DNA of 64,000 bases from Shigella phage sb4, in the sequence record PQ666542; one strand, written 5' to 3'. The notes beneath the pieces were generated by a model. That model saw nothing but the letters and a program-made list of their open reading frames with translations. It was not told the DNA's origin and ran no database searches. Positions 34,979 to 35,395 of this stretch are shown here, in pieces. Each line of letters starts with the position of its first letter. The stretch's first letter is position 1. The position numbers were made by a program, and so were the translations under genes.

Positions 34979-35395
34979 TTAAATGTAAATATTTTTACCG
35001 TAGTATTTATACCAGTATGGCTTCATTAAAATTTTTTCATCGAGTCGTTGTTTGCTCAATTTAATATCTGATTTGCATGGATTATAATAATTTTTACATT
35101 CTGCTGGAATATCGCTGATGTCAGGAACTTCAGTATATTTTATAATGAACCCACGTTTTAAGCATTCCGTTATAATGTCTGATTGACGCTTTCGCAAAAA
35201 TTTTAACTTATCGTAAAAGAACGTAACATGACCAGAGCCTAAAATAAACTCGGAAGATATTTTAAAATCTTTAACCCGTTTACCATTTGCAACATGTTTA
35301 CGAACTATACCAAAAACACGCGGCAGTTCACGGTATTCTGCGATTAAATGTTGATCAGCAAGTTCAGATACTAAAGTCAAATTAATACGAGTAAT
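34979..35395 (-). CDS. denV: endonuclease V DenV (pyrimidine-dimer DNA glycosylase); canonical start codon reads ATT
   Basis: ...[28 protein letters not shown]...; GGAGGG Shine-Dalgarno then ATT where ATG is expected. Confidence 0.8.

Follow-up and report, generated by a model that had tools for sequence, protein, structure and literature searches.

The ATT at the denV initiation codon of a T4-like phage sequence is most likely a record error within an unselected substitution load

Introduction

The denV gene is dispensable in T4, and classical denV mutants are UV-sensitive, i.e. they display the 'v' phenotype. In its product, the pyrimidine-dimer DNA glycosylase T4 endonuclease V, the α-amine of the N-terminal Thr is the nucleophile and forms the catalytic imine, while a Glu functions as acid/base (PMC3285167). 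T4 endonuclease V (PDB 2END, 1VAS, 2FCC) is encoded behind the same Shine-Dalgarno and short-spacer layout as the denV gene described here; however, translation of the T4 gene starts at ATG while the gene described here has ATT at this position.

In Escherichia coli, initiation at AUU reaches about 1-2% of the level seen with AUG, and the only confirmed natural AUU starts in this species are those of infC and pcnB (bioRxiv 10.1101/063800). Moreover, mRNAs that start with AUU compete poorly with mRNAs that start with AUG (PMC5499595). The denV ATT resembles the infC and pcnB starts in that AUU is located behind a functional ribosome-binding site where it would be read at a low level by the initiator tRNA. 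By contrast, the AUU codons of infC and pcnB are conserved, and that of infC is part of an IF3 feedback loop, whereas the denV ATT is unique to one sequence and is surrounded by noise.

Results

The window, i.e. the whole stretch of 64,000 nucleotides that was analysed, comes from a T4-like phage (genus Tequatrovirus, pSs-1 group). Along its full length it aligns colinearly with Shigella phage pSs-1 (NC_025829.1), with 97.26% identity, 1,700 mismatches and 28 gap openings, and it spans the end of gene 43 followed by regA, 62/44/45, nrdD, tk, denV, e, the tRNA cluster, the baseplate genes 53-12 and gene 13. At 34496-35949, the gene order is e, then denV, then a gene for an ipII-like internal protein, while the order in T4 (64939-66997) is e, ipIII, ipII, denV; on comparison of the sequences, the order in the window is natural and common to the pSs-1 group.

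The denV frame is located at 34979..35395 on the minus strand, and comprises 138 codons followed by a TAA stop codon (34981..34979, minus strand). The product matches Pfam PF03013 with 45.3 bits (cut-off 23, E=1.1e-11), and aligns colinearly with residues 1-137 of PDB 2END (chain A; E=1.6e-64) with the ATT facing Met1. In this alignment, Thr2, Arg3, Arg22, Glu23 and Arg26 of T4 endonuclease V are identical in the denV product, and we conclude that the frame is that of a predicted T4 endonuclease V.

The initial annotation had reported ATT in place of ATG behind an intact Shine-Dalgarno sequence, and the letters read exactly as claimed. Positions 35393-35395 are AAT on the plus strand, giving ATT on the minus strand (35395..35393) where denV is expected to start, and the minus strand that opens the frame reads GGAGGG-ATAAA-ATT-ACT-CGT-ATT-AAT-TTG. 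The Shine-Dalgarno sequence GGAGGG (35406..35401, minus strand) is separated from ATT by the 5-nt spacer ATAAA, an arrangement that is the same in pSs-1, ECP2301 and IME339. Thus, directly before Thr2, where Met removal would expose the catalytic amine, there is no canonical initiation codon but ATT. The frame is closed upstream by an in-frame TAG (35437..35435, minus strand), from which the sequence continues in frame as TAG-AAT-TTT-GAT-AGT-ATA-TTC-ACA-GTT-ACT-TGG-AGG-GAT-AAA-ATT; between this TAG and the ATT there is no in-frame ATG, GTG or TTG, and the search for an alternative ATG or GTG start with a ribosome-binding site, which had been suggested together with the initial claim, found none upstream before the TAG.

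The comparison of the start region with T4 and relatives returned ATG everywhere and ATT in no relative. Specifically, the orthologous codon is ATG in sb2, ECP2301, IME339, pSs-1, sb3, Ec_MI-02, KNP1, KNP5, Sfk20 and T4, and likewise in an IMG/VR contig and in a more distant denV homolog. We also ran megablast with a 51-nt query that has the variant base in its middle, such that seeds form only on words containing that base. The G version of this query matched 249 phage records, 217 of these with ≥99% identity, while the T version matched 0 of 50,697 phage records. Similarly, the ATT version had 0 matches in PLSDB plasmids, complete E. coli genomes, IMG/VR, GTDB genomes and JGI metagenomes; matches to ATT obtained in IMG/VR with a looser pattern were in unrelated genes and were rejected. 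The difference is, as had been claimed, a single-nucleotide change, i.e. one G>T on the coding strand at codon position 3 (C>A at 35393 on the plus strand) of an otherwise universal ATG. In total, the ATT is real in the sequence as given and, by comparison with the records searched, private to it.

The ATT is accompanied by four further private changes within 540 nt, all on the minus strand in the comparison with relatives: E65K (35203), D87Y (35137), a silent denV change (35279, K39), and a second private G>T at 35430, which lies between e and denV, 35 nt upstream of the ATT. Three residue changes in denV are specific to the window (E65K, S/N84I and D87Y), and E65K and D87Y are the strict singletons among them. 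No promoter-like site overlaps the private change at 35430.

Private changes were defined as singletons in the window relative to a panel of seven relatives (pSs-1, sb2, sb3, Ec_MI-02, KNP1, KNP5 and Sfk20). An earlier panel with four relatives gave 685 private changes including natural patches; the seven-relative panel gave 610, comprising 241 transitions and 369 transversions. By contrast, transitions exceed transversions about 5:1 among the singletons of the relatives (107:15 in pSs-1, 156:30 in Ec_MI-02 and 117:23 in Sfk20), and in clean relatives only ~15-30 singletons across these 64 kb are transversions, versus the 369 in the window. The spectrum is directed toward A/T, with T>A (91), C>A (87), A>T (79), G>A (69), C>T (65) and G>T (57) as the numerous classes, while exchanges between G and C were observed 9 times.

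Expected numbers were obtained by distributing the same spectrum randomly over a reconstruction of the ancestral coding sequence. Nonsense changes were observed 35 times versus 36.3 ± 5.7 expected, and among the 106 pSs-1 genes mapped onto the window, one start-codon change, i.e. that in denV, was observed versus 2.0 ± 1.4 expected. For transversions alone, the numbers were 28 versus 28.9 for nonsense changes and 238 versus 222 for missense changes. Only the transitions show the synonymous excess typical of natural divergence (113 versus 58). The rates of private changes are similar in non-coding (1.2%) and coding sequence (0.9%). Roughly 450-550 private changes (~0.8% of sites) behave as fully unselected, with a split between synonymous, missense and nonsense changes that is random and a spectrum unlike that of natural divergence, and the denV start change falls into this load.

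The private changes are unevenly distributed. The region 36465-41474 contains zero private transversions versus ~29 expected, and the window is identical to pSs-1 there. In this 5-kb region, whose genes separate nudE from the tRNA cluster, the window differs from the other relatives at tens to over 150 positions. Recent recombination, better coverage or reference fill-in may account for the block. Several other clean blocks of 1-1.7 kb are present, including 26361-28084, 4963-6386 and 14290-15631. Reference fill-in as the origin of all clean blocks was rejected; it is applicable only to 36465-41474, and the other blocks differ from pSs-1.

Moreover, the private transversions depend on sequence context. 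They favour A/T-rich surroundings; C>A is underrepresented where the next base is C or G, and T>A was observed once in ATG versus 10.6 expected and 29 times in TTA versus 16.3 expected. Compared to random sites with the same substitution type, the 5-mers that were hit are more common (z about 3-4). Strand-coordinated damage clusters were not detected in a runs test (p about 0.5), and there was no excess of neighbour-base copying of the kind expected from slippage or dislocation (322 versus 324 expected). Nanopore miscalls at glucosyl-hydroxymethyl-C were considered as a source and are not supported, as the noise is biased to A/T-rich sequence with A:T>T:A as the largest class. Finally, a collection of 15 billion proteins contains none of nine window proteins that carry private changes; a control protein from a clean block is present in it 200 times.

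Among the 106 mapped genes, 23 are interrupted by a total of 33 internal stop codons, while each of the seven relatives has 0-3. The stop codons created in frame are mostly TAA but also TGA and TAG. Private in-frame stops are located at 1161, 1456, 1817 (gp44), 6955 (gp47), 11548, 15104, 15374, 16046, 16067, 17183, 20991, 22262, 22455, 28896, 29752, 29779, 30089, 30155, 32483, 34885, 35654, 35659, 43555, 49406, 51482 and 51484 (both gp6), 52661, 53792, 55160, 58064, 59816, 60646 and 63268. The essential genes with stops are those for gp62 (two stops), gp44, gp47, gp49, gp5, gp6 (two adjacent stops), gp7 (three), gp10, gp12 (two), gp13 and the lysozyme e; in e, on the minus strand, the private pair at 35659 (Cys97, TGT>TGA) and 35654 (Leu99, TTG>TAG) is part of the same window-wide load. 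Private one-base indels were identified at 13309, 34392, 42305, 43379 and 45788, of which the deletion at 13309 causes a frameshift in nrdD. ARAGORN detected ten tRNA genes in the window, all with sense anticodons and the same set as annotated in sb2 and sb3; none of these ten is a suppressor tRNA gene. Because the stops break essential genes and no suppressor tRNA is present, the sequence as written, judged by its predicted products, cannot be that of a viable, propagating phage.

The initial annotation had regarded the ATT as another product of a disruption process that is not restricted to nonsense codons. That the process extends beyond nonsense codons is borne out, with private coding changes comprising 313 missense, 142 synonymous, 35 nonsense and one start-codon change, to which 117 private non-coding changes and ~5 private one-base indels are added. 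The in-frame stops and the start-codon hit share one process; however, this process is undirected noise and is not aimed at genes, because stops and start hits occur at chance frequency.

Deposited records of the pSs-1 group, which belong to the same lineage as the window, also contain premature stops or split essential genes. In sb2 (PQ666540.1), denV has a premature stop of its own at codon 107 (321-nt CDS), and the DNA polymerase gene (gene 43) is split; sb2 also has an excess of C>A/G>T singletons (52/301) but lacks the large A:T>T:A component of the window. Sfk20 was deposited with split genes and with several baseplate annotations missing, and KNP1 and KNP5 carry the label UNVERIFIED. 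In the pSs-1 clade, record quality is a concern in general; however, the window is far worse than the other records of the group, with 33 internal stops versus 0-3 and 369 transversion singletons versus 2-181.

Discussion

Since the start-codon change is a private G>T and the stops occur at chance rate, we read the start change as part of the same load. It is very probable that the ATT is one random strike of a record-wide unselected substitution load, most likely a record error, and that the real phage has ATG at this position. This view is supported by the absence of the nine altered window proteins from the protein collection, by the milder defects of the same kind in deposited genomes of the clade, and by the lack of a second ATT copy in the collections searched. 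In the mechanism that we propose, an undirected single-base load (~500 changes, ~0.8% of sites) would have been laid over most of the 64-kb window on top of natural divergence. The load would be rich in transversions, directed toward A/T and accompanied by rare one-base indels, and would have arisen during sequencing, assembly or by later corruption; the change from ATG to ATT in denV would be one chance member of it. From the absence of selection we infer that the load is most likely a technical error that would not be physically present in the DNA. Its patchiness and its context dependence make a quality-dependent error a better fit than uniform mutation. We know of no sequencing platform with an error profile that fits a ratio of ~100:1 between substitutions and indels with A:T>T:A as the commonest class, and on the evidence of the sequence, computational corruption and wet-lab error cannot be separated as the origin of the load. 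A point that counts against a record error is that denV is non-essential, so that a real phage could tolerate the ATT.

This dispensability is also the main reason to consider a genuine G>T in the phage DNA, i.e. a spontaneous denV start mutant with reduced or null excision of pyrimidine dimers, and the premature stop in the deposited denV of sb2 as well as the intact Shine-Dalgarno sequence and remaining frame are in agreement with such a mutant. Nevertheless, we consider it unlikely: the ATT is found in no other record, it is accompanied by two more private missense changes in denV and by the nearby intergenic G>T, and it bears the signature of the noise in being a private transversion toward T. 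Because clean relatives have ~15-30 private transversions and the window has 369, the chance that a given private transversion in the window is natural is roughly 5%. A programmed AUU start, which would keep denV expression low or make it IF3-sensitive as in E. coli infC and pcnB, has a possible precedent in T4 itself, in which gene 26 reportedly has an internal AUU start, as is said to have been described by Nivinskas and colleagues in 1992. Moreover, AUU behind a strong Shine-Dalgarno sequence at optimal spacing can initiate (bioRxiv 10.1101/063800). However, a programmed start is expected to be conserved, and the codon is ATG in every ortholog examined, i.e. in the 249 phage records and T4; in addition, the RNA structure at the denV initiation region is unremarkable (z = 0.1), and the change is embedded in a random error load. 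Because ATT is conserved in no ortholog, we reject a programmed start, which we regard as extremely improbable. It is just as hard to credit that translation truly starts at the in-frame TTG at codon 6 (35380..35378, minus strand) to give an endonuclease V of 133 aa. While this TTG is the first canonical start in the denV frame and the choice of a mechanical ORF finder, it has no Shine-Dalgarno sequence of its own within 5-10 nt, as GGAGGG lies 20 nt upstream, and the codon is not conserved, T4 having CTT at codon 6. Moreover, a product started there would lack Thr2 and Arg3, and is predicted to be inactive because the N-terminal Thr α-amine that forms the catalytic imine would be missing (PMC3285167).

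Two further explanations concern the window as a whole. Stop-codon recoding and suppressor tRNAs are found in some large phages, and the window has a cluster of ten tRNA genes; with an alternative genetic code or suppressor-tRNA read-through, the interrupted genes, and the odd start, would be intact. Yet, the ten tRNAs all have ordinary sense anticodons as in the relatives, TAA, TGA and TAG all occur in frame while each of them continues to terminate genes as it does in pSs-1, and the stops replace many different amino acids at a count that matches the chance rate, leaving recoding with virtually no probability. Alternatively, the sequence could be a faithful read of a real T4-like genome that replicates without selection, either as a defective helper-dependent genome or as a passive relic. 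If this were true, the loss of the denV start, the 35 stops and the A/T-directed transversions would represent raw mutational output on a T-even genome, and a load that is physically real would make the window an unusual case of T-even genome decay without selection. Nothing in the data favours unselected decay, and we consider it very unlikely.

The preferred reading, i.e. that the ATT is a record error, implies that as a biological feature the denV ATT is most likely not real. If it were real, initiation from AUU would yield about 1-2% of normal denV translation, and the scarce product would be native with Thr2 exposed after Met removal; a UV-repair function that is not essential would be strongly reduced, a situation equivalent to that of the 'v' mutants. 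The change had been called inactivating in the initial annotation. Given an AUU with an activity of ~1-2% of that of AUG and no alternative start, a strong drop in expression is indeed expected, while inactivation itself is what we infer.

For users of the record, gene calls in the window are wrong in at least 24 genes, including the 133-aa 'denV' called from TTG, a split lysozyme gene, and split baseplate and clamp-loader genes. The lesions in the window are unsafe to interpret as a non-canonical start, recoding or pseudogenisation without the raw data.

Several other differences were observed in the window. The insertion at 42305 gives a tRNA-Leu of 88 nt versus 87 in the relatives, and that at 43379 affects the beginning of a small ORF. 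Gene 1 (dNMP kinase) is shorter than in pSs-1 by 18 nt at 44703-44879, in frame, and its length of 714 nt is that of sb2; at 19950-19955, a hypothetical gene has a 6-nt in-frame insertion compared to pSs-1. Both of these length differences look like natural variants rather than noise. Finally, the gene for tRNA-Gln contains eight private changes in 17 nt at 42354-42370 that are mirror-symmetric (C>T, T>A, G>C ... C>G, A>T, G>A). ARAGORN still calls the anticodon TTG in this tRNA, and the cluster of changes resembles a stem variant with natural compensation rather than noise.
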